A stretch of DNA of 55,510 nucleotides from an uncultured Methanosarcinales archaeon (GTDB taxonomy: Archaea; Nanobdellota; Nanobdellia; Woesearchaeales; GW2011-AR9), in assembly GCA_964434885.1 (NCBI GenBank), contig CAYSWQ010000005.1, positions 1 through 55,510 of the forward strand. The letters are read 5' to 3'. Positions 103-45,621 of this stretch are shown piece after piece. The notes beneath the pieces are model-generated. The model did not search any database and was not told the origin of the DNA. It worked only from the letters and a program-made list of their open reading frames with translations. Position 1 is the stretch's first letter, and every line of letters starts with the position of its first letter. Made by a program: the position numbers and the translations under genes.

Positions 103-104
103 AT

Positions 105-179
105 TGGGGCCGCCCGGATTCGAACCGGGGTTCAAGCGTCCCAAACGCTTAGTGATAGACCAAGCTACACTACGGCCCC
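105..179 (-). tRNA. tRNA-Pro (anticodon UGG)
   Basis: The reverse complement folds as a cloverleaf: acceptor GGGGCCG/CGGCCCC, anticodon arm AAGCG-UUUGGGA-CGCUU, T arm CCCGG-TTCGAAT-CCGGG, discriminator A. No intron. Confidence 0.9.
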
Positions 180-225
180 AATGAATGCTTTTAAACGGTG
201 TGTTTTTAAAAGGTTTTTGCTAATT

Positions 226-2888: not shown

Positions 2889-4001
2889 ATGGAAATAGTT
2901 AGAGAAGTCAATACTGAAATTAAAATAGTAAAACCAAAGAAAGACGTCCATGCTAAGATGGAAGTATTTTATAATCCATTGATGAAATCTAATCGTAATA
3001 TTTCTATTTTGTTGCTGAATGCGTTAGGTGGTAAGAATATGAACTTAGCTTTACCTTTGGCGGGTTCTGGAATTCGTGCGTTAAGGTTTTTACAAGAATT
3101 GAAAAAGGGAAAGATTGATTCTATTTATATTAATGATAAGAAAGAGAATTTTATTAAGAATTTTAAAGAAAATTTGGGATTAAATAAAATAAAACCCACT
3201 AAGTTGAAGATATTTAATCAAGAGGCAAATGATTTTCTTTTAAATCAACACAAAGATGATTTTTGTGGTTATTTTGATTATATTGATATAGATCCTTTTG
3301 GTAGTCCGAACCCTTTTTTGTCTTCAGCAGTGGCGCGGATTAAGCGAGGAGGGATATTGGCAGTTACAGCTACAGATACAGCTGCTTTGACTGGAACTTA
3401 TTTGCGGACGACTCGGCGTAAGTATTGGGCTAGTTCTTTGAAGAACTATTTAATGCATGAAACAGGGTTGAGGATTTTAATTAGAAAAGTCCAATTACTG
3501 GGAGTACAGTTTGAGAAAACTTTAGTTCCCGTTTTAAGTTATCATAAAGACCATTATTTTAGGATTTATTTTGTTTCTGATCGAGGCAAGAAGAGATGTG
3601 ATGACTTGTTGAAAGAGCACCAATTTTTGTTGTATTGTAATAATTGTTTGAATTTTGAGAAATCTAAATTTAATTGTGGAGTTTGTGGCTGTGGTCAAGA
3701 TTTTAATTTTGCTGGGCCATTATGGACAGGAGAGTTGTTTGATAAGAAATTGGTTAAAAAAATGGCTAAAGAGAATACTTTTGTTAAAGAGCAGGCGTTT
3801 TTAGATTTGTTGAGTAAGGAGTCGTGGAAGGGAGTGTTTGGATTTTATGATCTACATATAATATCTAAAAAATATAAATTAGGAACTCCTAAAATAGAAG
3901 AGTTTTTGAAAAAAATTAAAGGAGTTAGAACACATTTTTCTAAATATGGAATTAAGAGTGAATTGAAAATTGAAGAAATAATAAAAAAAATAAAAAAATA
4001 A
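2889..4001 (+). CDS. trm1: tRNA (guanine26-N2)-dimethyltransferase Trm1
   Basis: 370 aa. FYNPLMKSNRNISIL and DIDPFGSP motifs typical of TRM1. The Cys cluster CNNC...CGVCGC sits in the C-terminal domain. Confidence 0.9.
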   Translation: MEIVREVNTEIKIVKPKKDVHAKMEVFYNPLMKSNRNISILLLNALGGKNMNLALPLAGSGIRALRFLQELKKGKIDSIYINDKKENFIKNFKENLGLNKIKPTKLKIFNQEANDFLLNQHKDDFCGYFDYIDIDPFGSPNPFLSSAVARIKRGGILAVTATDTAALTGTYLRTTRRKYWASSLKNYLMHETGLRILIRKVQLLGVQFEKTLVPVLSYHKDHYFRIYFVSDRGKKRCDDLLKEHQFLLYCNNCLNFEKSKFNCGVCGCGQDFNFAGPLWTGELFDKKLVKKMAKENTFVKEQAFLDLLSKESWKGVFGFYDLHIISKKYKLGTPKIEEFLKKIKGVRTHFSKYGIKSELKIEEIIKKIKK

Positions 4002-4003
4002 AA

Positions 4004-4204
4004 TTAACACTTACATACTTTTGGGTGGACTAACCAAATTAAACCTTTTAGGATTACCATTGCCCCAACAAACACTCCCCAAGTTACCCAGCCGTAAAGA
4101 GCGTTCAATAAGATAAGAACTCCCAAAATCAAAACTCCCCAAGCCATACAACTACAACATTTTCCTGTAGAACAAGTATTTGCTACAACTTTCTTTTTTG
4201 CCAT
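4004..4204 (-). CDS. Small Cys-rich membrane protein (paralogue of 4219..4437)
   Basis: 66 aa. MAKKK..NTCSTGKCCSC head, two hydrophobic helices, C-terminal CKC. Confidence 0.5.
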   Translation of the reverse strand: MAKKKVVANTCSTGKCCSCMAWGVLILGVLILLNALYGWVTWGVFVGAMVILKGLIWLVHPKVCKC

Positions 4205-4218
4205 TTAATTCACCTCTT

Positions 4219-4437
4219 TTATTTACACCAACTTTTTCTTACTGCTGGGCAAGCCCAGATAGAAATGTTAAGTAAGATTATTAAGATAAGAGTGCTAAGC
4301 CATAAGTTGGTTTGAATTTTTAACAAGTATTGTACATAATATAAAAATCCGAATAAAGCTGCTTCTGAAATAAGCAATAAAAAAAACTCATTACCTGCAC
4401 AACAACTAGTGGAACAAGTATTTTTCTTTTTAACCAT
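4219..4437 (-). CDS. Small Cys-rich membrane protein (paralogue of 4004..4204)
   Basis: 72 aa. MVKKKNTCSTSCCAGN head, two hydrophobic helices, C-terminal Cys residues. Confidence 0.5.
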   Translation of the reverse strand: MVKKKNTCSTSCCAGNEFFLLLISEAALFGFLYYVQYLLKIQTNLWLSTLILIILLNISIWACPAVRKSWCK

Positions 4438-4484
4438 ACTATCACCTCTAGAAATTAGAAATAAAAAAAACTATATAATTGTTT

Positions 4485-4772
4485 CTATCCAATTGCTCTT
4501 CGAACATCAACCACTTCAAAACTTTGGACTCCTTCAATGCTCGTAATTTTGCTTTCTATAGCATCTGGACTTCCTTTTGCTTCATCCATGGTGAAAAGTA
4601 TTTTGATAGCTTTTAAACCGAAAGCAACAGGTTCAATTTCTACTTTTTGATCTTCTGGAGCATCTCTTTCCGTAAATTCTTTAATTAGGGATTGAATTTT
4701 TGGAGTTAATTCATCTAGATTTACTTCTGGACTTTCCGGCATAATTTTTACAGTAACTACAGCAACAGCCAT
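4485..4772 (-). CDS. ef1b: Elongation factor aEF-1beta
   Basis: MAVAVVTVKIMPESPEV...VDVRRAIG matches the archaeal EF-1beta fold family. The start was moved to ATG 4772, which is preceded by GAGGTGA. The track ORF begins further upstream, at 4799. Confidence 0.9.
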   Translation of the reverse strand: MAVAVVTVKIMPESPEVNLDELTPKIQSLIKEFTERDAPEDQKVEIEPVAFGLKAIKILFTMDEAKGSPDAIESKITSIEGVQSFEVVDVRRAIG

Positions 4773-4782
4773 ATTATTCACC

Positions 4783-4953
4783 TCAATTAGGACCAACAAA
4801 GTTGCATTCTGGGCAAGTGTATTTTACTGCAGATTTTCGGCAATCAGAACATCTGATAAGTTCAAACTTACCACAATTCGGACATTGAAAAGTAACACAA
4901 CCTTTGTCATTATCTGTTTTTTTCTTACATGAACTACAATTTTTTGATTCCAT
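4783..4953 (-). CDS. Zn-ribbon protein (four CxxC) of the type usually found just upstream of aEF-1beta
   Basis: Translated by hand and absent from the track (<60 aa): MESKNCSSCKKKTDNDKGCVTFQCPNCGKFELIRCSDCRKSAVKYTCPECNFVGPN*. Its stop lies 10 nt before the ef1b ATG. Confidence 0.75.
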   Translation of the reverse strand: MESKNCSSCKKKTDNDKGCVTFQCPNCGKFELIRCSDCRKSAVKYTCPECNFVGPN

Positions 4954-4984
4954 TTAGTTCTCAAACTTGATTTTATTTATAAAA

Positions 4985-6055
4985 TTATCTTCTTTCAACA
5001 CTAATTTCTAAACCTTTTAAGTTAAATTTAATATCTAAGAATTTTTCGATGATGTACATATTGGTTTTAGTATGTTCAGTTAACTCTGAGATCCTCATTT
5101 TGCTTCCTGGGAGAAGAGCAAGATAAAGTAATAATTGGTCTGCCAAATATTTATCCACACAAGCACCAGATTTGATTTCTTGAATTAAATTATTTGCGGC
5201 TTCTTGGCCAACTTTTTCTGCTGACTTGCCTTTTTCGGCTCTGGCGTCAGCACCTAAAATAACTGGGTTTTTGAAGTTAATTTCTTCTTCAGAAGCATAT
5301 TGGGCCCAAAGTACAATTTCTCCACCGGGGCTTAAAGTATTGGCATATTCAATTCTAATGTCGGTGGGGCAATTTCTTGGAGCAAGAGTTATTTCTGCAC
5401 TTCGTTTAATTCTTTCAGCAACTTCTTTTTCTTCTAAATGAGTAGAACAATTGATTACGCCTTTAATTTGTACCAAGTCTCCAAGTTCAGTAAGATTAAT
5501 TCTTGGAATTTCTCTTAAATCTTGATAAAATTCATTTAAGTATTTAGGATGAATAATTAATTGAATCTCTCCACCACCTTTGGGATAATATCCTCTTTTG
5601 ATGATTTTAAGATCAATTTTGTCAACAAATTTTCTTAAGTGGGGGAGGAGAATATTTTGTAGATAATCTATTCCAGCTGACCATTTTCCAGAAGTACCTC
5701 CTTTCAGGTTTAAAGTGACTTTCCCCGGGGCAAAAAGACAAGGTAAGGTTAAGGCTTGGAGGAGAAGAGTAATAGAACCGGCAGTACCAATATCAAAATT
5801 AAAAGTTCCTTTTTTTATTTTTCCTGGAACAAACATAAATTCTTGAGAACCTAAGAAAACATCACTGGCTTTGGCTTGACAAATTTCTTTTAAGGCTTGG
5901 ATTGCGGTTAGGTGTTGGGCTTTTAAGCCAGGATTTGGGCGATTGGCACGGACATTGGTGATTTTGAATGGTTTATTGGTTAAGGTTGATAAGGCTAAAG
6001 CTACCCTTGGTATAGAACCTCCTCCTTCTCCATATTGGCCATCGATTTCAATCAT
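4985..6055 (-). CDS. rtcA: RNA 3'-terminal phosphate cyclase
   Basis: 356 aa. N-terminal IDGQYGEGGGSIPRVALALS and the overall RtcA pattern. Confidence 0.9.
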   Translation of the reverse strand: MIEIDGQYGEGGGSIPRVALALSTLTNKPFKITNVRANRPNPGLKAQHLTAIQALKEICQAKASDVFLGSQEFMFVPGKIKKGTFNFDIGTAGSITLLLQALTLPCLFAPGKVTLNLKGGTSGKWSAGIDYLQNILLPHLRKFVDKIDLKIIKRGYYPKGGGEIQLIIHPKYLNEFYQDLREIPRINLTELGDLVQIKGVINCSTHLEEKEVAERIKRSAEITLAPRNCPTDIRIEYANTLSPGGEIVLWAQYASEEEINFKNPVILGADARAEKGKSAEKVGQEAANNLIQEIKSGACVDKYLADQLLLYLALLPGSKMRISELTEHTKTNMYIIEKFLDIKFNLKGLEISVERR

Positions 6056-35248: not shown

Positions 35249-35309
35249 TATAATATCACCCTAGTAAATAAATAAAATCTTTTAGTTTATAATATTTTTC
35301 TTTATTAAT

Positions 35310-36702: not shown

Positions 36703-36760
36703 TTTATTGTTGTATTTTTAATAGATTATTTAAATTTTAGCAAATAACTCCTACTTCACA

Positions 36761-37106: not shown

Positions 37107-37574
37107 TTACTCTGTTCCAAATTCCAAATCCACCTTCTTAACATATTCTTTAACTCTTCCTAAAACTGAGCTGAGTAAGAAGCTTTCGATCTTTTCTTCG
37201 AAGATTTCATTTAGTTCACTCCATTCGGAAATTCGATAAAGGTTAGAGTTGCTTTCAATTAAGTGGATATCTTTTAATCTTTTTAATTGTCTTCTGATGT
37301 TAGAACCAGCAACTCCAAGAACAGGTAGTTTGTTTCTTTTTCTATAACCAATTACTTTGTTTTTGATTTCTTCAGAATGTAATTCTTCTTTTTGTTGTTT
37401 TGCTTTAAGTAAAGTGTATAAAACATCAACAACTACATCTCTACTATCTCCAGGTTGTAATAATCCCAAACTTAGACATAATTTTCTTACTAGTTCTCGA
37501 TCTTGAGTAACTGGTTTTTCATATCTTCTTAATGTGATTTCCGATAAAGGAGTATCACGTGAAATTTTTGCCAT
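37107..37574 (-). CDS. Conserved archaeal winged-helix (HTH) protein
   Basis: Start set at ATG 37574 (MAKISRD...), preceded by GAGGTGA. The track's N-terminal extension runs into hairpin element A. Confidence 0.6.
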   Translation of the reverse strand: MAKISRDTPLSEITLRRYEKPVTQDRELVRKLCLSLGLLQPGDSRDVVVDVLYTLLKAKQQKEELHSEEIKNKVIGYRKRNKLPVLGVAGSNIRRQLKRLKDIHLIESNSNLYRISEWSELNEIFEEKIESFLLSSVLGRVKEYVKKVDLEFGTE

Positions 37575-37610
37575 GTTATTCACCTCAATTTTTATTTTAA
37601 TGTTGTTCAG

Positions 37611-37698
37611 AAAAACATCACGCACGGCCCTTCGATTTTTTACTCTTACGGCTTCGCCATCGGGTAAAAAATGGGCCTCATTTGGCGGTGATGTTTTT
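37611..37698. ncRNA. Copy A of an unassigned conserved hairpin/structured-RNA motif
   Basis: 11-bp outer stem AAAAACATCAC/GTGATGTTTTT. Conserved core GCACGGCCC ... GGGCCTCATTTGGCG. Inner 11-bp stem ATTTTTTACTC/GGGTAAAAAAT. Confidence 0.55.
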
Positions 37699-37716
37699 CT
37701 TGATAAGTGTGTATTT

Positions 37717-39411
37717 TTACCTGTGTAAGTACCAAAAAGTAATTTTGTTTTTATCTATTTTATCTACTCGAGCAAAATAATTTCTTTCTAATTGAACTAA
37801 GTCTCCTTCTTTAAGGTCTTTCATACTTTCTTCTCCCAAACCTAAAGCAATATTATTGTCTTCTAAACACACATTGGTAATAATATTTTTTTCATCAGGT
37901 AACCAATGAATGATTACTCCTTTGTTTTTAGAGGATTTAAAATCTTCATAAATTTCAGAGACATAATAATATTTTCCATCTCTAACTTCAAAATTACAAT
38001 AATCCATTAATCGATGAATTTTTCCTTCTTCTAATTTTCCTAAATCTTTTTCAGTAATATTAATTTCTTTGGTAGGAATTAAGGTTCTTTGTCCACGTTT
38101 TGGGAAATCCGGGTGTAAATCTAGCTTCACTTCTTTTTTAGGAAGGTTTTTTATTTTTATTTTTACTGGATCTTGGATAAAGAAATAACGATTAGCTTTG
38201 GATTCAATTATTTCTTTGTTGAAGGCATTGATGTTTTTCCAGAATTCTTCTAAAGAAACTGTTTTATCATTTAAACTCAAACCAATTTCTGTCGCATACT
38301 TCCTAAATGCACCAGCCTGGTAACCTCTTTTTCTAAGGGCCAATAAGGTCATTAAACGAATGTCATCCCAACCAGTGTATTCACCTTGTTCAATAGCTAA
38401 TTTTGTTTTAGTGGTGCTTAATTTGAAGCCCTCAAAATTGATCCTGCCCCAATGTTGATAGTGAGGTGGTTTCCAACCCAAATAATCCATTATCAAAGCT
38501 TCTTTTCTACCATTGTCGGTATGGTCTTTACCATTCAAAACATGAGTGATTCCTAAGTCATGATCATCGATAGCAACCGAAAAAACCATCAAAGGCCAAA
38601 CTCTTTGTTCTTTGCCAGTTTTAGGGTGAATATGTTCATTAATTCTGAGAATTACAAAATCCCTCATAGCAGGATTCTTGTGATCAATTTCTGTTTTTAA
38701 TCTAAGAACTGCTTCTCCTTCAGCATACCCACTAAACATTTTGGCGTATCTTAATTGGTTTTCTTTTTTTTCTAGATCTCGGCAAGGACAAGCTTGACCT
38801 TGGTTTTTTAGTTCTCGCCATTGGTCTGCATCACAAATACAAACATAGGCTTTTTCCATTTCCACCAACTTCTCTGCATAATCATAATAAATTCCTAAAC
38901 GGGAAGACTGAATTATTACTTGGTTTACTTTATTATCAGTTAACCAGTTAGAATCATCTTCGATTAATTGGTAAGCTGGTTTGTAGATGTTTTCTGGATT
39001 GGTATCTTCGATCCGGACGATGAATTTTCCTTGATATATTTTAGAATATTCATAATTTAAAGAAGCCCCATAAGCATGGCCAATGTGTAAAGGACCACTA
39101 GGAGAAGGAGCAATTCTAACTACTACTTTTCCTTTTTCTGCATCTTTCAATGGTTTTAGTGGGCCAGTTGGTTTTTCTTTCTTATCTTCTAATAATTCTG
39201 GAGCAATTTTTTGTAATTGTTTTTTGATTTCTTCTTTGTTTAAACTAGATGTTTTTTTGATAATGGCTTCAATTTCTTTCATTAAAGCAGGAATATCTTT
39301 TTTTAATTCATTCTTTTCTTTTAGAACCATTCCCATAACAAATTTGGGGTTAACACTTCCAAAACGAAAAGAATTTTGTAAAACCCATTTTTTGATTGTT
39401 TCTCTCATCAA
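37717..39411 (-). CDS. gltX: Glutamyl-tRNA synthetase, archaeal type
   Basis: 564 aa. Archaeal N-terminal extension (WVLQNSFRFGS.NPKFVMGMVL), HIGH (PSGPLHIGHA), class I core. Confidence 0.9.
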   Translation of the reverse strand: MMRETIKKWVLQNSFRFGSVNPKFVMGMVLKEKNELKKDIPALMKEIEAIIKKTSSLNKEEIKKQLQKIAPELLEDKKEKPTGPLKPLKDAEKGKVVVRIAPSPSGPLHIGHAYGASLNYEYSKIYQGKFIVRIEDTNPENIYKPAYQLIEDDSNWLTDNKVNQVIIQSSRLGIYYDYAEKLVEMEKAYVCICDADQWRELKNQGQACPCRDLEKKENQLRYAKMFSGYAEGEAVLRLKTEIDHKNPAMRDFVILRINEHIHPKTGKEQRVWPLMVFSVAIDDHDLGITHVLNGKDHTDNGRKEALIMDYLGWKPPHYQHWGRINFEGFKLSTTKTKLAIEQGEYTGWDDIRLMTLLALRKRGYQAGAFRKYATEIGLSLNDKTVSLEEFWKNINAFNKEIIESKANRYFFIQDPVKIKIKNLPKKEVKLDLHPDFPKRGQRTLIPTKEINITEKDLGKLEEGKIHRLMDYCNFEVRDGKYYYVSEIYEDFKSSKNKGVIIHWLPDEKNIITNVCLEDNNIALGLGEESMKDLKEGDLVQLERNYFARVDKIDKNKITFWYLHR

Positions 39412-39461
39412 TGATTGGAAAAAAGAATTAATTATTAAATGTTTTGATTAAATATTATAAT

Positions 39462-40052
39462 TTACTTTCTCCACCAACTCAAAAACCAACTTATTCCGGC
39501 TCCAATCATTCCCAAGAACATATCTTTTTGGGCATCCCAAATATCTCCTTGCATACCTAAATAATTAGTTTCTACTAATTCACTTTCTGCTACTAAACTA
39601 TAACCAACTTCGATTATTTCGAAAATTCCTTTTAATCCGATAATAACCATAAAGGTGAAAAAATGACTCCAGATTTTTTTGATCTTTAGTTTTTTGTAGA
39701 TTATTACTTGGATGGGAAAATAGAAGACTACTCCGAATAAAAAGTGGACTACTCGGTCATAATGATTACGGGATAAGTTCAGCCAATTTTTTAATAGATC
39801 AAACAATGGCATTTCTGAATAACTGTAGTGAGCACCGATGGTGTGTAAGATTAAGAAAATAAATAAGAGGGTGTAGCTGAGATTGGAGAAACGAAAATAT
39901 TTGTAAGTTATAACCAATAATAAAACTAAAGTAACACTCAAGATATTTTCAGCAATCCAAACTTCTCGATATAATGGGGAGATGGCTAGAAAGGTCCAAA
40001 TTAGAGTAAAAATGCCTAATAAGATAGAAGGATAATAATTTTCTTTTTTCAT
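39462..40052 (-). CDS. Polytopic membrane protein (DUF2238/YjdF-like)
   Basis: 196 aa with about 6 TM segments. Resemblance only. Confidence 0.45.
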   Translation of the reverse strand: MKKENYYPSILLGIFTLIWTFLAISPLYREVWIAENILSVTLVLLLVITYKYFRFSNLSYTLLFIFLILHTIGAHYSYSEMPLFDLLKNWLNLSRNHYDRVVHFLFGVVFYFPIQVIIYKKLKIKKIWSHFFTFMVIIGLKGIFEIIEVGYSLVAESELVETNYLGMQGDIWDAQKDMFLGMIGAGISWFLSWWRK

Positions 40053-40862
40053 TTAAAATTGTCCTTTTTCAATTAAAATTCTCATTCTTTGCACAAAATC
40101 ATTGGCTTCTTTTAAGTAAAGATCATATTGGTCACCGCGGATTTCTTTAATTTCTCGATGAGTAATCATTTTACTAAGTTTGTAAAATTTGTGCATAGTT
40201 TCTACATATTTTTTTTCTAATAATTTCTTTTTAACAAAAATTTTATCTAACATATGGGCAACGTGTTCAGGAGTGGGAGGGATTTCGTTTTTTCTCATTA
40301 ACGCAGCATGAGCAGAATCAATAACTGCCCAATATAAATCTAAAGTAGCTTGTAATAAATGCCATCGAGAATTAAGTATTGTTCTTGGGGCTCTTCCGAA
40401 GTAACGCCAAACACTTTCTTCTGAAGGTCTGATTCTTCCTCTTTTTAGTAAAACTTGTAATGGATTATAGAAACCAGAATCATATAATGCGAAACCATCT
40501 CTTAGGATGTTAACTACTACGGGATCTCCAGCTTTAGCATATTCCCAGAAAGAAGATAAGGTCATAGAAGTAATATGTAATTTTTCTGAAGTTTTACTGA
40601 TGGTGTTTTCAACAATTACTCGATAAGTTTCTACCAATGCATCTGTGATTTGAAAACTGATGTCGTCAGTAACAACTAAAATATCAATGTCACTTTTTTC
40701 AGTAGCTTCCCTTCTAACTGTGCTACCAAAAAGAACAATTCCTTTTAAGAAATCTTTTAATTCTGTTTGTAATTGATTAGAAAAACTAGTAGCGATTTTA
40801 ACATCTGCAGTAGGATATTTGTGTAGGTTGGTGTTCTCTCTTTTGGCTATTCTAAATTCCAT
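40053..40862 (-). CDS. Nucleotidyltransferase-domain protein with a helical HEPN-like C-terminal domain
   Basis: GSTVRREATEKSDIDILVVTDD (minimal NTase G-S...DxD), followed by a helical C-terminal half. Confidence 0.6.
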   Translation of the reverse strand: MEFRIAKRENTNLHKYPTADVKIATSFSNQLQTELKDFLKGIVLFGSTVRREATEKSDIDILVVTDDISFQITDALVETYRVIVENTISKTSEKLHITSMTLSSFWEYAKAGDPVVVNILRDGFALYDSGFYNPLQVLLKRGRIRPSEESVWRYFGRAPRTILNSRWHLLQATLDLYWAVIDSAHAALMRKNEIPPTPEHVAHMLDKIFVKKKLLEKKYVETMHKFYKLSKMITHREIKEIRGDQYDLYLKEANDFVQRMRILIEKGQF

Positions 40863-40977
40863 ATTAACCTCTTTTTAGATTGAGATATTGTTTAGGTATA
40901 AAAAAGTTACTTTTTCTGTATGATTAAACAAAAAAGAAAATTATTTAAGGTGGAAAAATTTAATTTATTGAATTAGG

Positions 40978-41655
40978 ATGAAAAAATTAGTTTTTGTAAT
41001 GGTATTGATCTTGTTTGTTGTAGGGTGTGATAATAATAGCATCAATAAACAAGGTTTGAAATTACATTATGAAAGAACTTTTTTTTCGTTGCATTCAGAT
41101 TTGGATTGTGGAGAAGAACAGGGGGACTTCTGTTTGTTACAACAAATAGTAAAGGGTAAAAATGTTTCTGCCTGTGAACAATTTGGAGAAGGAATTGCTA
41201 ACTACGAATGTTATACTAAAATGGCGGAAAAGTTGGGTGATTTTAAGATTTGTCATAAACAAAATATTTCTGAACCAAAAAAATCTATTTTTGGAGGAAT
41301 GCATATTTGGGTTTACCAATGTTATCTTAATTTGATTGCAACTAAAGGAGATGTTAAGTTGTGTGATCTCAAATATAATAACACCGAAGGAAGAATAGTC
41401 TGTTACAATGAGTTGGCAGGGGTTTTGGCTAATTTGGATATTTGTGATAAAATTAAAACAGTTGAAGATAAGAACAATTGTTTTACTTGGGTGGCAGAGA
41501 CATTAAGAGATATTTCAATATGTGATAGAAACATTAAAAACGAGTACACTAAACAATTTTGCTATAAAAACGTGGCTCTAGTTTTAAATGATACTTCAAT
41601 TTGTAAAGATAAGGTCACTTTTGATGATTTAAGATTCTATTGTGGAATAGAATAG
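40978..41655 (+). CDS. Cys-rich repeat lipoprotein (unknown function)
   Basis: LILFVVGCDNN lipobox. About 6 repeats of roughly 30 aa with the pattern D.x.(I/L)CD/H ... C(Y/F)..(V/L)A. Confidence 0.6.
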   Translation: MKKLVFVMVLILFVVGCDNNSINKQGLKLHYERTFFSLHSDLDCGEEQGDFCLLQQIVKGKNVSACEQFGEGIANYECYTKMAEKLGDFKICHKQNISEPKKSIFGGMHIWVYQCYLNLIATKGDVKLCDLKYNNTEGRIVCYNELAGVLANLDICDKIKTVEDKNNCFTWVAETLRDISICDRNIKNEYTKQFCYKNVALVLNDTSICKDKVTFDDLRFYCGIE

Positions 41656-41686
41656 TTTGGATAAGGGGAGTAATAACTTTTTGAGA

Positions 41687-41700
41687 GAAACATTTATAAA
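41687..41700 (+). promoter_or_regulatory. BRE/TATA promoter (GAAACATTTATAAA)
   Basis: Would place a TSS near 41725. That gives rps2 a leader of about 210 nt containing hairpin element B. Confidence 0.4.
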
Positions 41701-41817
41701 AGTGCAGCTGTTTGAAGAGATAGAGCCAACATTTACCTATTGTGGGGTAAATATTGCTGCATGAGGCAAAAAATATTGCAGTCTTTGAAGTTATTCTTAG
41801 ACTTTTTTTGCTTATTA

Positions 41818-41907
41818 AAATATCGGCCTGCACGGCCCAGTTATTTTTCACCCTTACGGCTTCGCCACCGGGTAAAAAATGGGCCTCCTTTGGCAAGGCC
41901 GATATTT
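41818..41907. ncRNA. Copy B of the unassigned hairpin/structured-RNA motif
   Basis: 12-bp outer stem AAATATCGGCCT/AGGCCGATATTT. Core GCACGGCCC ... GGGCCTCCTTTGGCA. Ends 30 nt before the rps2 ATG. Confidence 0.55.
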
Positions 41908-41937
41908 CACTTACAAAAACAAACGAGGAAATTAAAA

Positions 41938-42540
41938 ATGGCAGAACAAGAAACATTATTGATTGATTCCAACGAATACTTGAAATCAGGAATTCATATT
42001 GGAACTAAATTTAAAACTAAGTATATGTCTAATTTCATCTATAAAACTAGACCTGATGGGTTAAGTGTTTTGAACTTGAAATTGATTGATGAAAGAATCA
42101 AGACAGCTGCGAATCTAATGGCACAATACGAACCAGAAGATATTTTGGTAGCAGGAAGAAGAGAGAGTTGTTGGAAATCTTTGAAGACATTAGAAAAAAC
42201 TACGGGTGTAAAAACTTTAGTTGGTAGATACCCACCAGGAATTTTAACTAATCCAAACTTGAAGATTTTTATTCAACCAAAATTGCTTTTAGTTTGTGAT
42301 CCATGGCCGGACAAAAACGCAGTTAGTGATGCAATTAAAGGAGGAATTCCAGTAATTGCACTTTGTGATACAAACAACCAATCAAACAATCTTGATTTAG
42401 TTGTACCTTGTAATAACAAAGGAAAAAAATCTTTAGGATTAATTTTCTATCTATTAGCAACAGAATATCTGAGAATGAAAGGTAAATTGAAAGCTAATGA
42501 AAAGTTAAAAGAAACAATAGAAGATTTTACTGAAGAATAA
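41938..42540 (+). CDS. rps2: 30S ribosomal protein uS2 (archaeal S2/SA type)
   Basis: MAEQETLLIDSNEYLKSGIHIGTKFKTKYMSNFIYKTRPDGLSVLNL. GAGGA lies 10 nt upstream. The track's upstream extension is not coding. Confidence 0.95.
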   Translation: MAEQETLLIDSNEYLKSGIHIGTKFKTKYMSNFIYKTRPDGLSVLNLKLIDERIKTAANLMAQYEPEDILVAGRRESCWKSLKTLEKTTGVKTLVGRYPPGILTNPNLKIFIQPKLLLVCDPWPDKNAVSDAIKGGIPVIALCDTNNQSNNLDLVVPCNNKGKKSLGLIFYLLATEYLRMKGKLKANEKLKETIEDFTEE

Positions 42541-42595
42541 TTTTTTATTCTTTTTTTCTTATTAAATTTGGTGATGGGTAGTTGGAGGTATAATA

Positions 42596-43582
42596 ATGAA
42601 AAACATAGCTATTATTGGTGGTAGTGGAGCAGCAGGAGTGGTTAGTGGATTAGGTATTAAAGAAGAAGAATTGACTACTTGTTTTAATGTGGAAACACAA
42701 GCACTCGATTATATGAAATTTCAACATGGAGATATTAATGTTGTTTTTGCTTTAAGACATGGTAAAGAACATACTAAAGATCCTGCTCGAATAAAACCAA
42801 AATATTTGGCAAAACAATTATCTAAATTGGTTAATCCCGAAGAAACATTGGTGGTACAAACAAGTGCTTCTGGGAGTTTGGATGTTGATATTGATTTGGT
42901 TGATGAAGGGGGAATTGTGGTTTGTGATTCTGTGATGAGGGGTTTTGGATTTAGAGGAAGTTCAAGATCTATTGTTGATCCCAAAATAGTTCATGCTGTA
43001 ATTGATAATGCATATTCAGAAAGAGCAAGAGAATTAGGAGTAAATGCAGTTCGATCTGTTAGGGGGGCAATTGCTTATGATGGTGGTGTTTATGTTGAAA
43101 ACGAAGGTAATCGGTTTGAAACTAAAGAAGAAATTGCAGATCTTTATTGTCGTTTAGATACTCCTAGATTTAGATTGCAAAGTTTGGAAAGAGAAAGAGC
43201 GATTTGTGATTATTTGGATGGTTTAAATCGCGGAGAACATTCAGATCCATTATGGCATAAATTTAGAATGGGAGATGGGAGAGTAACAGATAACGACAGA
43301 TTAACTAAAGAAATAGAAAAATATCAAAGAATGAGTGAAAATTTAAGTGTTAAATATGCACAAGTTTCTATGAATGCAGCTAAAGAAATAGAACCTTTGA
43401 TGGAATCTGGGTTTAAAGATGTTGTTTTGTTGGCGTTTCCAGTTAATTATGGAAAAGGCTTGATTCCTGATGAACAAGTTGATCATGCTAGAACAGAAGA
43501 AGCAATAGCAAACGCAACAGAACCATATATTGTTTCAACTTTGATGAACATGATTGAAATGGCACCAAGATATATTAAATAA
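42596..43582 (+). CDS. Divergent PNP/MTAP-family phosphorylase-like protein
   Basis: IAIIGGSGAAG ... VFALRHGKEH..P ... ASGSL resemble MTAP blocks. There is a long insertion, and the function is uncertain. Confidence 0.45.
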   Translation: MKNIAIIGGSGAAGVVSGLGIKEEELTTCFNVETQALDYMKFQHGDINVVFALRHGKEHTKDPARIKPKYLAKQLSKLVNPEETLVVQTSASGSLDVDIDLVDEGGIVVCDSVMRGFGFRGSSRSIVDPKIVHAVIDNAYSERARELGVNAVRSVRGAIAYDGGVYVENEGNRFETKEEIADLYCRLDTPRFRLQSLERERAICDYLDGLNRGEHSDPLWHKFRMGDGRVTDNDRLTKEIEKYQRMSENLSVKYAQVSMNAAKEIEPLMESGFKDVVLLAFPVNYGKGLIPDEQVDHARTEEAIANATEPYIVSTLMNMIEMAPRYIK

Positions 43583-43586
43583 TTTT

Positions 43587-44498
43587 TTATTCTTTTATTT
43601 CTATTTCATCGACAACACCATCAGAATCCATGTCAATCCCTTCTACAACTTTAGCATTGATTTTTGGATTAGTTGTATTGCCTTGAGTTAATTCTTTGAA
43701 ATTTTTTAAGAAAGCGATAATGCAGGCTCTGGTGCCAGCATGTCTTTTTCCAGCAATCAATAATATTTTTTTGTTTTTGTTAAAAGGATTTTCGGTTTTA
43801 ATAATAATTCCATTTTCATCGGAAAAATAACTCTTTTTTGATATTTTGCTGACTATTTTTTTTCCATCAAAATGAATTGGTAATTGGTTGTTAATTTTGT
43901 TGGTAATGTTATTAACTACTGGACCTCCAAAGATAATTAAGTTTTCTTTGAGTTCTTTTTCTCTGATTTCTGTATCTAAGCGAACATTTAACTTAGGGAT
44001 ATGATTGAGAAACGTTCCTAAAAATAAAGCAAAATCCATACCATAATAGCCATCTCTAGATCTAGCTTTTTCTGGACCATGTGGGTCTGGACTACCAACA
44101 ACAATTAATGATTTTAATTCCCCATTTTGAATAAAAGGTTCAAGAAAAGTAGATTCATTGGAAGGGGCAGCGATTTTTTGAGCCGCTTTCATCTTTTGAA
44201 ATTTTAAAACAAAAGCAGGTTCAGTTAATGTAAAATATTTGGCAACGGGTCCTTGTTTAGTTTCTTCTTTTAATACTCTAATCAAATCTGCATCCAATAG
44301 TCTTTTGATATGATAATATATTTTTTGTTCGTGGACCCCTAATTTTTGAGCAAGTTTTTTTGGATAGGTGGGAGAAGCAGCTAATGTTTTGATAATTTTT
44401 TCTGCTAAAGGCGAAGAAAGAGTTTTTAGTTGAGAGGTAGTTAATTCTTTAACTGGTAAAGTGAATAATTGATTCTTTTTGGTTTTTGTTAGGAACAT
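43587..44498 (-). CDS. ArsR-like winged-helix protein with a large uncharacterised C-terminal domain
   Basis: LSSPLAEKIIKTLAASPTYPKKLAQKLGVHEQKIYYHIKRLLDADLI, then about 200 aa of alpha/beta sequence. Confidence 0.6.
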   Translation of the reverse strand: MFLTKTKKNQLFTLPVKELTTSQLKTLSSPLAEKIIKTLAASPTYPKKLAQKLGVHEQKIYYHIKRLLDADLIRVLKEETKQGPVAKYFTLTEPAFVLKFQKMKAAQKIAAPSNESTFLEPFIQNGELKSLIVVGSPDPHGPEKARSRDGYYGMDFALFLGTFLNHIPKLNVRLDTEIREKELKENLIIFGGPVVNNITNKINNQLPIHFDGKKIVSKISKKSYFSDENGIIIKTENPFNKNKKILLIAGKRHAGTRACIIAFLKNFKELTQGNTTNPKINAKVVEGIDMDSDGVVDEIEIKE

Positions 44499-44517
44499 AG
44501 TGTTGTGTTGAATAATA

Positions 44518-44590
44518 AATCAACCTGCACGGCCCGAGGATAAATTCCATTTACCTGGAATTTATGGGCCTCCATTGGCAAGGTTGATTT
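44518..44590. ncRNA. Copy C of the unassigned hairpin/structured-RNA motif
   Basis: 10-bp outer stem AAATCAACCT/AGGTTGATTT. Core GCACGGCCC ... GGGCCTCCATTGGCA. Unrelated but perfect 10-bp apical stem ATAAATTCCA/TGGAATTTAT. Confidence 0.55.
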
Positions 44591-44673
44591 ATAATCTATA
44601 TTATAAAATTATTTTTAATAGTAGTATAAATACTTTAATAACACTTATATATAAATGTTTCTTCGAGGTTTAA

Positions 44674-45621
44674 ATGAAGAAAAAGATCACAGTGGTTGGT
44701 GGAGGAACAGGAAGTTATACTGCATTAAAAGGATTGAAAGGATATGATATTGATTTAGCAGCAATAGTAAGTATGTTTGATTCTGGAGGAAGTACCGGTG
44801 TTTTAAGGGACGAATTAGGAGTTTTACCGCCAGGAGATTTAAGAAAATGTTTGATTGCTTTAGCAGATGAAGAAGGAGAGAATGTTTTAAGAGAATTATT
44901 TTCTTATCGATTTGAAGGCGGAGTAGGAGATCATTCTTTAGGAAATTTAATATTGACTGCGGCACAGAAAAGATATGGTAATATAGCTAAAGGAATTGGA
45001 AAGTTATCTAAAATTTTAAATTTGAAAGGAGATGTTTACCCAGTTTCATTAGATGATTGTACTTTATGTGCTAAATTGAAAGATGGGGAAGTGATAGAAG
45101 GGGAAGCCAATATTGATGTTCCAGTTGGAGAGAGAGAACCAATCGATTATGTTTATTTAAAACCGGGGGCGAAAGTATATTCTGACGTAGAAAAAGTGCT
45201 TGCAGATTCTGATTTAATTGTTATTGGTCCAGGAGATTTATACACTAGTGTTATACCTAATCTTTTAGTGGAAGGAGTTCCAGAAGCAATTAGAAAGAGT
45301 TCAGCTAAAACAGTTTACGTCTGTAATTTAATGACTAAACAAGGAGAGACAGACGATTATAAAGCTAGTGATTTTTTAAGAGAAGTAGAAAAGTATTTGG
45401 GTGGACCAGTCGATTATGTAATTTGTAATGAAAATGGGATGTCTGCAGAATCATTAGCAATTTATGAAGACCAAAACCAATTTCCAGTAGAGGTTGATTT
45501 AAAAGATGAAAGATTAATAAAAGCTAATATTTTGTATCAGAAAAATGGGGGAAAAGATTTGATTAGACATCACCGAGAAATGTTAGCAAAGGAGTTGATG
45601 AAGATTGTTGATAATATTTGA
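44674..45621 (+). CDS. YvcK/CofD-family protein (UPF0052, gluconeogenesis factor-like)
   Basis: ITVVGGGTGSYTALKGLK ... VSMFDSGGSTGVLRDELGVLPPGDLRKCLIALAD. Confidence 0.85.
   Translation: MKKKITVVGGGTGSYTALKGLKGYDIDLAAIVSMFDSGGSTGVLRDELGVLPPGDLRKCLIALADEEGENVLRELFSYRFEGGVGDHSLGNLILTAAQKRYGNIAKGIGKLSKILNLKGDVYPVSLDDCTLCAKLKDGEVIEGEANIDVPVGEREPIDYVYLKPGAKVYSDVEKVLADSDLIVIGPGDLYTSVIPNLLVEGVPEAIRKSSAKTVYVCNLMTKQGETDDYKASDFLREVEKYLGGPVDYVICNENGMSAESLAIYEDQNQFPVEVDLKDERLIKANILYQKNGGKDLIRHHREMLAKELMKIVDNI

Follow-up and report, generated by a model that had tools for sequence, protein, structure and literature searches.

The window analysed here, the 55,510 nucleotides of contig CAYSWQ010000005.1, carries three long hairpins of 85-100 nt, A, B and C, which we judge with a probability of about 0.65 to be copies of a small non-coding palindromic mobile element, similar in kind to MITEs, which are transposable elements of the miniature inverted-repeat type, and lodged between genes in a clade of Woesearchaeales, members of the DPANN archaea. 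An initial reading of the DNA letters by themselves (the sequence-only reading) had taken the varying but paired stems as the signature of a selected structure rather than of a copied repeat. That conclusion is not borne out: related genomes provide filled and empty versions of the same sites, terminal inverted repeats (TIRs), flanking repeats of 7-8 bp, the same arms in unrelated contexts and an orientation that is independent of the neighbouring genes. Covariation has been kept, but the copies behave as a mobile repeat, and the hairpin is not demonstrated to be an RNA gene.

The hairpins and their copies in other contigs

The three copies and the two boxes of their core lie as follows in the window.

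37609..37700, plus strand: copy A, hairpin element; 13-bp perfect arms AGAAAAACATCAC/GTGATGTTTTTCT (37609-37621 / 37688-37700), core 37622-37687
41815..41913, plus strand: copy B, hairpin element; perfect arms 41818-41829 / 41896-41907; imperfect outer arms of 27 nt, 41803-41829 / 41896-41922
44512..44595, plus strand: copy C, hairpin element; 15-nt arms, 93% complementary (44512-44526 / 44581-44595), with an unrelated 10-bp apical stem
37622..37630 (A, plus strand), 41830-41838 (B) and 44527-44535 (C): 5' core box GCACGGCCC
37673..37686 (A, plus strand), 41881-41894 (B) and 44566-44579 (C): 3' core box GGGCCTCNNTTGGC

Each copy follows the same plan, consisting of an outer stem, a bulged purine, a 2-bp GC step, an internal loop of 2 nt on one side and 7 nt on the other, a GGCCC/GGGCC helix and an apical stem-loop, with a core consensus that reads GCAC-GGCCC ... 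GGGCC-TCNNTTG-GC-R. The sequence-only reading had placed three hairpins of one architecture here, and all three fold as it described; its stems, its 2-nt versus 7-nt loop, its bulged purine, an apex common to A and B that is replaced in C, and gaps of 36, 30 and 19 nt from A, B and C to start codons are likewise correct. For copy C the hairpin stands, with the 5' arm start that had been put at 44518 actually at 44517, and the outer stems of 10-12 bp hold as far as they go, the palindromes of A, B and C reaching further out.

The 5' core box is matched exactly 3 times in 55.5 kb, where 0.57 matches are expected and none of 100 shuffles reaches 3, and the 3' core box is found at the same three loci. 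Folding z-scores of A, B and C range from -5.1 to -6.9, with none of 200 shuffled sequences folding as well, and the minus strand of each copy folds as well as the plus strand. A covariance model, R1, of the sort that the sequence-only reading had proposed to build, recovers these three copies when scored at every position of the window and finds no fourth; a search of the window for any other comparable long hairpin was equally empty.

Six more copies were found in related Woesearchaeales contigs, giving nine distinct copies in total (A, B, C, L006, L009, L017, L024, L035 and L036) that span 84-132 nt. Four of them were retrieved by exact match to the core: a scan of genome contigs gave 15 matches, 2 real (L006 and L009) and 13 due to chance in GC-rich bacteria, and a scan of metagenome contigs gave 9, 2 real (L017 and L024) and 7 due to chance. 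In viral contigs the strict core pattern had no match and a relaxed pattern had 3, all by chance, and the element was not seen there. The remaining two copies come from relatives that were fetched by way of GluRS and aIF5B homologues and then searched with R1, which detected 1 copy in the closest relative, L035 (84% GluRS identity), 1 in L036 (74% GluRS identity) and none in L037, L041-L045 and L049-L053 (~165 kb). The spread is patchy, with 3 copies in the 55-kb window versus 1 each in L035 and L036, and the density in carriers is apparently low, at ~1 per 20 kb. Contigs from the window's own population hold the same three copies.

Every copy lies between genes, in most cases ending 12-40 nt away from a start codon; open reading frames (ORFs) that cross the elements are spurious, none being common to different copies. 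The same outer arms, TAAGTAATATGTC(A/G)GC(C/T)T, recur in L009, L017 and L024 in contexts that have nothing in common (the spacer between an ABC ATPase gene and an S-layer-like gene, a place beside a GDP-mannose dehydratase gene, and a place after a cupredoxin-like gene), and copy B is a degenerate member of this subfamily. Tabulating the genes around the further copies, a check also put forward by the sequence-only reading, gave unrelated contexts and mixed orientations: B and L009 are sense to their flanking genes, A, L006 and L036 antisense, and C, L024 and L035 lie in divergent spacers. In L009 the stop codon of the upstream gene falls inside the outer arm of the copy.

Termini, flanking repeats and filled or empty sites

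Inverted arms of 13-27 nt bound every copy, and the terminus TA(A/G)GTAAT(AT)GTC is common to L009, L017, L024 and L035 and degenerate in B. Four of the nine copies are directly abutted by A/T-rich direct repeats of 7-8 bp, namely TCTAAAAC at L017 (shuffling P=0.00025), TAAATAAC at L035 (P=0.0004), TTATTAAA at L024 (P=0.003) and AAAATAA at L009 (P=0.014), which we read as target-site duplications. Shared termini and flanking repeats of this length are thus features of the young copies. The flanks of copy B offer at most CTTA, or a 9-mer with 2 mismatches, as a duplication. The hairpin of L035 sits within a longer TIR-bounded insert, comprising the 132 nt between the TAAATAAC repeats, and the insert termini GGTAATGT...ACATTACC resemble the TAAGTAAT terminus.

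Relatives yield four pairs of filled and empty sites with alignable flanks. Site B is filled in the window, with ~99 extra nt between the flanks GCTTA and CAA, and empty in L035, where nothing separates GCTTA from CAA and the rps2 ATG comes 25 nt later; copy B is also missing upstream of rps2 in L045. Site A is empty in L035 and L037, which have only 24 nt between GluRS and the next gene, and the same spacer is filled in L036 in the orientation seen in the window. In the other two pairs it is the window that is empty, at the following places, neither of which has a strand.

36742..36748: empty target site, a single AAATAAC in the LGT-PRC spacer of the window; L035 is filled here
35249..35309: empty site, the window spacer between a cupredoxin-like gene and a 121-amino-acid gene; the orthologous spacer of L017 is filled

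The genes on both sides of the pair formed by L017 and the window are orthologous. What is present or absent between relatives is the whole hairpin including its outer arms, and a core-only element inserted into pre-existing host hairpins was rejected since the empty sites also lack the outer arms. Of the features that mark MITEs, three are found together here: small non-coding size (<~500 bp), terminal inverted repeats and dispersed copies with insertion polymorphism.

As to how such an element might move, we suppose that a transposase acting in trans would mobilise it, cutting A/T-rich targets in a staggered fashion with 7-8 bp between the cuts, which would be behaviour of the DDE type. The GC-rich asymmetric core and the capacity to fold back may both be required in cis, the core perhaps serving as a protein-binding or hairpin-nucleating module; if so, active lineages would for this reason keep the core and the complementarity of the arms while arm sequences drift. 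The window copies, which have no recognisable duplications, are probably older resident insertions and would be co-transcribed passively in 5' leaders or operon spacers in either orientation. As an explanation of why copies lie so close to start codons, insertion into the short A/T-rich spacers that a compact genome offers is preferable to regulation.

Several observations weigh against a MITE-like element. A related autonomous insertion sequence (IS) or transposase with the same termini, which a MITE should have, was not found in the fetched archaeal loci (~450 kb); a search of these loci for inverted TIR pairs (GTAATATGTC / GGTAATGTC, <=1 mismatch, 40-3000 bp apart) turned up nothing beyond the copies already known and pairs that arise by chance in genes. 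Four copies, A, C, L006 and L036, showed no target-site duplication, a search further out around them for outer TIRs or duplications gave no convincing result, and the arms of these four bear no relation to the TAAGTAAT terminus. In a classical MITE family it is the interior that drifts and the termini that are kept. The pattern is inverted here: mean pairwise identity over the nine copies reaches 0.89 for the core, as compared with 0.48 for the outer arms and 0.53 for the apical region, a contrast that is inflated because four of the nine (L006, L009, L017 and L024) were chosen by exact core match, so that the invariance of the core is in part ascertainment. The core is also conserved beside diverged arms in A, B, C, L035 and L036, none of which was selected in this way. 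An asymmetric core next to fully diverged arms is unusual for a MITE, and a conserved interior could point to a function of the core itself. Copy A and the L036 copy, moreover, lie the same way round in the same spacer; the two genomes are 74% identical in GluRS, and the five arm positions at which the copies differ have all changed on both sides. Should the two be orthologous, selection or hairpin-templated conversion has maintained the pairing in situ; otherwise the same spacer was struck twice. Finally, the sample is small, at nine distinct copies. It is conceivable, though we think it rather unlikely, that the asymmetric core is a protein-recognition module that acts in folded single-stranded form, as RNA or DNA, in a kind of mobile hairpin undescribed in archaea; examples would be the cis site of a hairpin-dependent transposition or recombination system, or a mobile small RNA with compensated arms that forms a ribonucleoprotein (RNP).

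Pairing in the stems and the competing explanations

The covariation from which the sequence-only reading argued is real. Standard pairs fill 91.9% of the cells in the nine copies and 69.6% after shuffling, 23 of the 33 pairs have changed on both sides, and pairing falls to 35-49% when the partner is shifted by 1-3 columns either way; a MAFFT alignment of five copies agrees that pairing is kept while the stem sequences change. Even the core helix takes part, with a compensated swap of GGCCC/GGGCC to GGCGC/GCGCC in L036 and one G.U in L035. The conflict in strand evidence that had been noticed in A and B persists in the larger set, because G.U on the plus strand is counted 7 times and A.C on the plus strand, equivalent to G.U on the minus strand, also 7 times, and neither strand is favoured as a selected RNA strand.

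Independently expressed genes for a structured small RNA, an RNP component or a regulator in which loop and bulged purine form a protein site and whose genes have been duplicated or are mobile, would account for a good part of this. In A, B, C, L035 and L036 the flanking stems have fully diverged with compensation, yet the core has been retained together with its bulged purine and its unpaired AC / TC..TTG; the swap and the wobble just described fall within the core helix; the copies have 39-52% G+C in a genome of 31%, as structured RNAs often do in AT-rich archaea; and A and the L036 copy share place and orientation. We nevertheless hold this explanation to be unlikely, since the wobbles show no strand bias, no promoter-like box lies at a constant distance, sites A and B are empty in the closest relative, with A and the L036 copy the one possible syntenic pair, four copies have flanking repeats like target-site duplications, the outer arm of L009 contains the stop codon of the gene before it and a longer TIR-bounded insert encloses the L035 copy. 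Nor is any known RNA recognised. With Rfam 15, cmscan at the gathering score over the whole window reports only tRNA-Pro (105-179, minus strand) and nothing at A, B or C; with E<=10 and lax filters over 37400-44800 there is nothing at the three hairpin loci; and ARAGORN finds in the window only the tRNA-Pro, at 104-180. This agrees with the sequence-only reading, which could match the motif to no tRNA, C/D, H/ACA, SRP or RNase P RNA and to no riboswitch or ribozyme core, and a hit to an Rfam family, which it had named as an outcome that would tell against the motif, did not appear.

Particular RNA motifs fare no better. In a K-turn a 3-nt bulge precedes tandem sheared G.A / A.G pairs; here, on the minus strand, the bulged side ends in GA, but the bulge measures 5 nt and the opposite side has GU instead of the required GA, and on the plus strand there is no GA at all, so that a K-turn or L7Ae site was rejected for want of tandem G.A pairs. 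Reading the sequence for a bulge-helix-bulge (BHB) splice motif, an H/ACA pocket with its ACA box, an archaeal SECIS element or C/D boxes gave none that fits every copy, and mimicry of the Shine-Dalgarno (SD) or anti-SD sequence (CCUCC on the plus strand, GGAGG on the minus strand) does not fit all copies either.

Less likely still is a hairpin of single-stranded DNA that serves a tyrosine or HUH enzyme as a recombination or transposition site, the purine and the loop marking the reactive strand, as in attC sites, the subterminal hairpins of IS200/IS605 with their PATE derivatives, and REP/RAYT systems. These resemble the element in that the arms pair but are free in sequence, one base is extrahelical and an unpaired spacer is asymmetric, to which the logic of attC adds a variable terminal structure; the single polarity of all three window copies and the lack of wobble bias, which suits a hairpin at the DNA level, fit as well. 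Y1/HUH transposases and integron integrases do not, however, produce duplications of 7-8 bp, such systems need a tyrosine or HUH enzyme nearby or in the genome, and the gene tables of the fetched loci contain no integrase, TnpA, Y1 or TnpB-like gene. An integron attC site was rejected on these grounds and because its R''/R' boxes (RYYYAAC/GTTRRRY) are absent from the arms and the DNA between copies holds essential genes in mixed orientation (GluRS, rps2), not cassettes. REP/RAYT and PATE elements, palindromes of 20-40 nt with a GTAG/CGTC tag, were set aside likewise, the elements here being considerably longer and having no constant tag.

A host signal acting in cis is the explanation to which we give least credence, whether as a leader or riboswitch-like regulator in the mRNA of the downstream gene, as a site of autoregulation by a ribosomal protein, or as a stabiliser of mRNA or a bidirectional terminator. 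The intergenic position of the copies, most of them 12-40 nt from a start codon, would suit it, as would arms that begin with AAA and end with TTT, giving a hairpin and U-run on either strand, and the location of B before rps2. The flanking genes are, on the other hand, unrelated (rps2, a 155-amino-acid protein, an HTH gene, an S-layer-like gene, a glycosyltransferase, an aminotransferase), A, L006 and L036 are antisense to the nearest gene, B is missing before rps2 in L035 and L045, and termination needs no elaborate conserved core.

For the MITE-like element, the resemblance to prokaryotic MITEs such as Correia/NEMIS of Neisseria and the SM1-type of Sulfolobus lies in small non-coding size, hairpin-forming inverted arms, an intergenic position whichever way round the copy lies, short direct repeats at the flanks and sites that are polymorphic for insertion between related genomes. 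It departs from the classical kind in that the central asymmetric core is the most conserved part, the arms differ wholly between subfamilies and no parent IS was found. By analogy we regard prokaryotic MITEs as the closest kind and bcr1 of the Bacillus cereus group as the closest precedent, a MITE-like repeat that is flanked by direct repeats, non-syntenic and transcribed and in which compensatory changes keep a hairpin or cruciform, so that covariation and mobility can coexist (PMC3184786). It differs from the present element in being bacterial, in its length (~155 bp), its 5-bp direct repeats, its two-stem-loop fold and its unrelated sequence; transcription has been shown for bcr1. A census of prokaryotic MITEs places a Woesearchaea genome among the MITE-densest archaeal genomes (PMC11602168). 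The mobile GC clusters of yeast mitochondria (PMC4478555) are likewise GC-rich palindromic mini-elements dispersed in a very AT-rich compact genome; they belong to a eukaryotic organelle and have other sequences. The sequence-only reading had also named a known MITE or REP class as a possible outcome against it, and this came about in kind, the element being MITE-like, but not by name, as no described family was found. A new family of MITE-like palindromic mobile elements is the best reading of these hairpins.

Genomic surroundings and implications

The window, with 31% G+C, encodes archaeal housekeeping genes; the best homologues of these bear the names Woesearchaeota or Nanoarchaeota. Copy A occupies the spacer between GluRS and a 155-amino-acid gene and is antisense to both. 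Copy B ends 24-30 nt ahead of the rps2 ATG (41938) and is in the sense of rps2, and copy C lies in the divergent spacer between an HTH_20/S_layer_C gene (minus strand) and cofD (plus strand). The earlier assignment of HTH genes next to A and C is right for C, where HTH_20 is present; for A the label is unsupported because the 155-amino-acid gene has no significant Pfam or NCBIfam match. That gene (37107-37574, minus strand), a conserved and unannotated partner of GluRS, encodes a protein of 154-157 amino acids with the N-terminus MAKISRDTPLSEITLRRYEKP... that always follows GluRS, in L035, L036, L037 and L045 as in the window, with no significant match in Pfam or NCBIfam.

A block upstream of B, 41740-41800 (…AAATATTGCTGCATGAGGCAAAAAATATTGCAGTC…), is near-identical in L035, unlike the rest of the spacer. 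Within it are a direct repeat, AATATTGC, and a short inverted repeat, CTGCA/TGCAG. The block may be the promoter or leader of rps2, with copy B inserted between it and the rps2 start codon. A 70-amino-acid ORF runs through copy B into rps2 (41754-41966, plus strand). Some public assemblies of this population annotate it as a gene (e.g. L025 9817-10029); Pfam gives no match, and the ORF is almost certainly an artefact of the inserted repeat. Gene order at 39462-41655 differs from that at 1314-2460 of L035, where the DUF2238 gene and the 225-amino-acid lipoprotein-like gene of the window are lacking and rps2, a nucleotidyltransferase gene and GluRS are adjacent, and the three hairpins therefore cluster in a locally rearranged 7-kb region. 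The tRNA-Pro(TGG) gene at 104-180 (minus strand) has a TTTTAAAAA box ~25-30 nt upstream, which we used as a local yardstick for promoter distance; near A, B and C there is no TATA-like box at that spacing.

Two of the contigs with copies deserve separate mention. L006, from a Woesearchaeota metagenome-assembled genome (MAG), has a long (TAT)n / (TTG)n microsatellite tract (5905-5975) immediately upstream of its copy. L009 (NYZP01000016.1) was deposited as 'Parcubacteria group bacterium', a bacterial MAG of the candidate phyla radiation (CPR), and encodes at 3374-5569 an archaeal aEF-2 (TIGR00490, 1017 bits against a cutoff of 738); since this gene and an archaeal hairpin element are on the same contig, it has probably been mis-binned or mislabelled.

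Descriptions of the mobile DNA in the tiny, gene-dense genomes of DPANN archaea are poor. A hairpin repeat inserting 12-40 nt before start codons and in operon spacers, in one case before rps2, could alter leaders, promoters and the stability of mRNA, and its filled and empty sites provide a handy marker at the level of strains. For the discovery of RNAs it also carries a warning. In a palindromic repeat, perfect covariation does not count as evidence of an RNA gene, since DNA that has to fold back, or an element whose arms have to match each other, gives the same signal on both strands. The inverted conservation, with an invariant interior and free termini, hints that something besides the terminal repeats is recognised.

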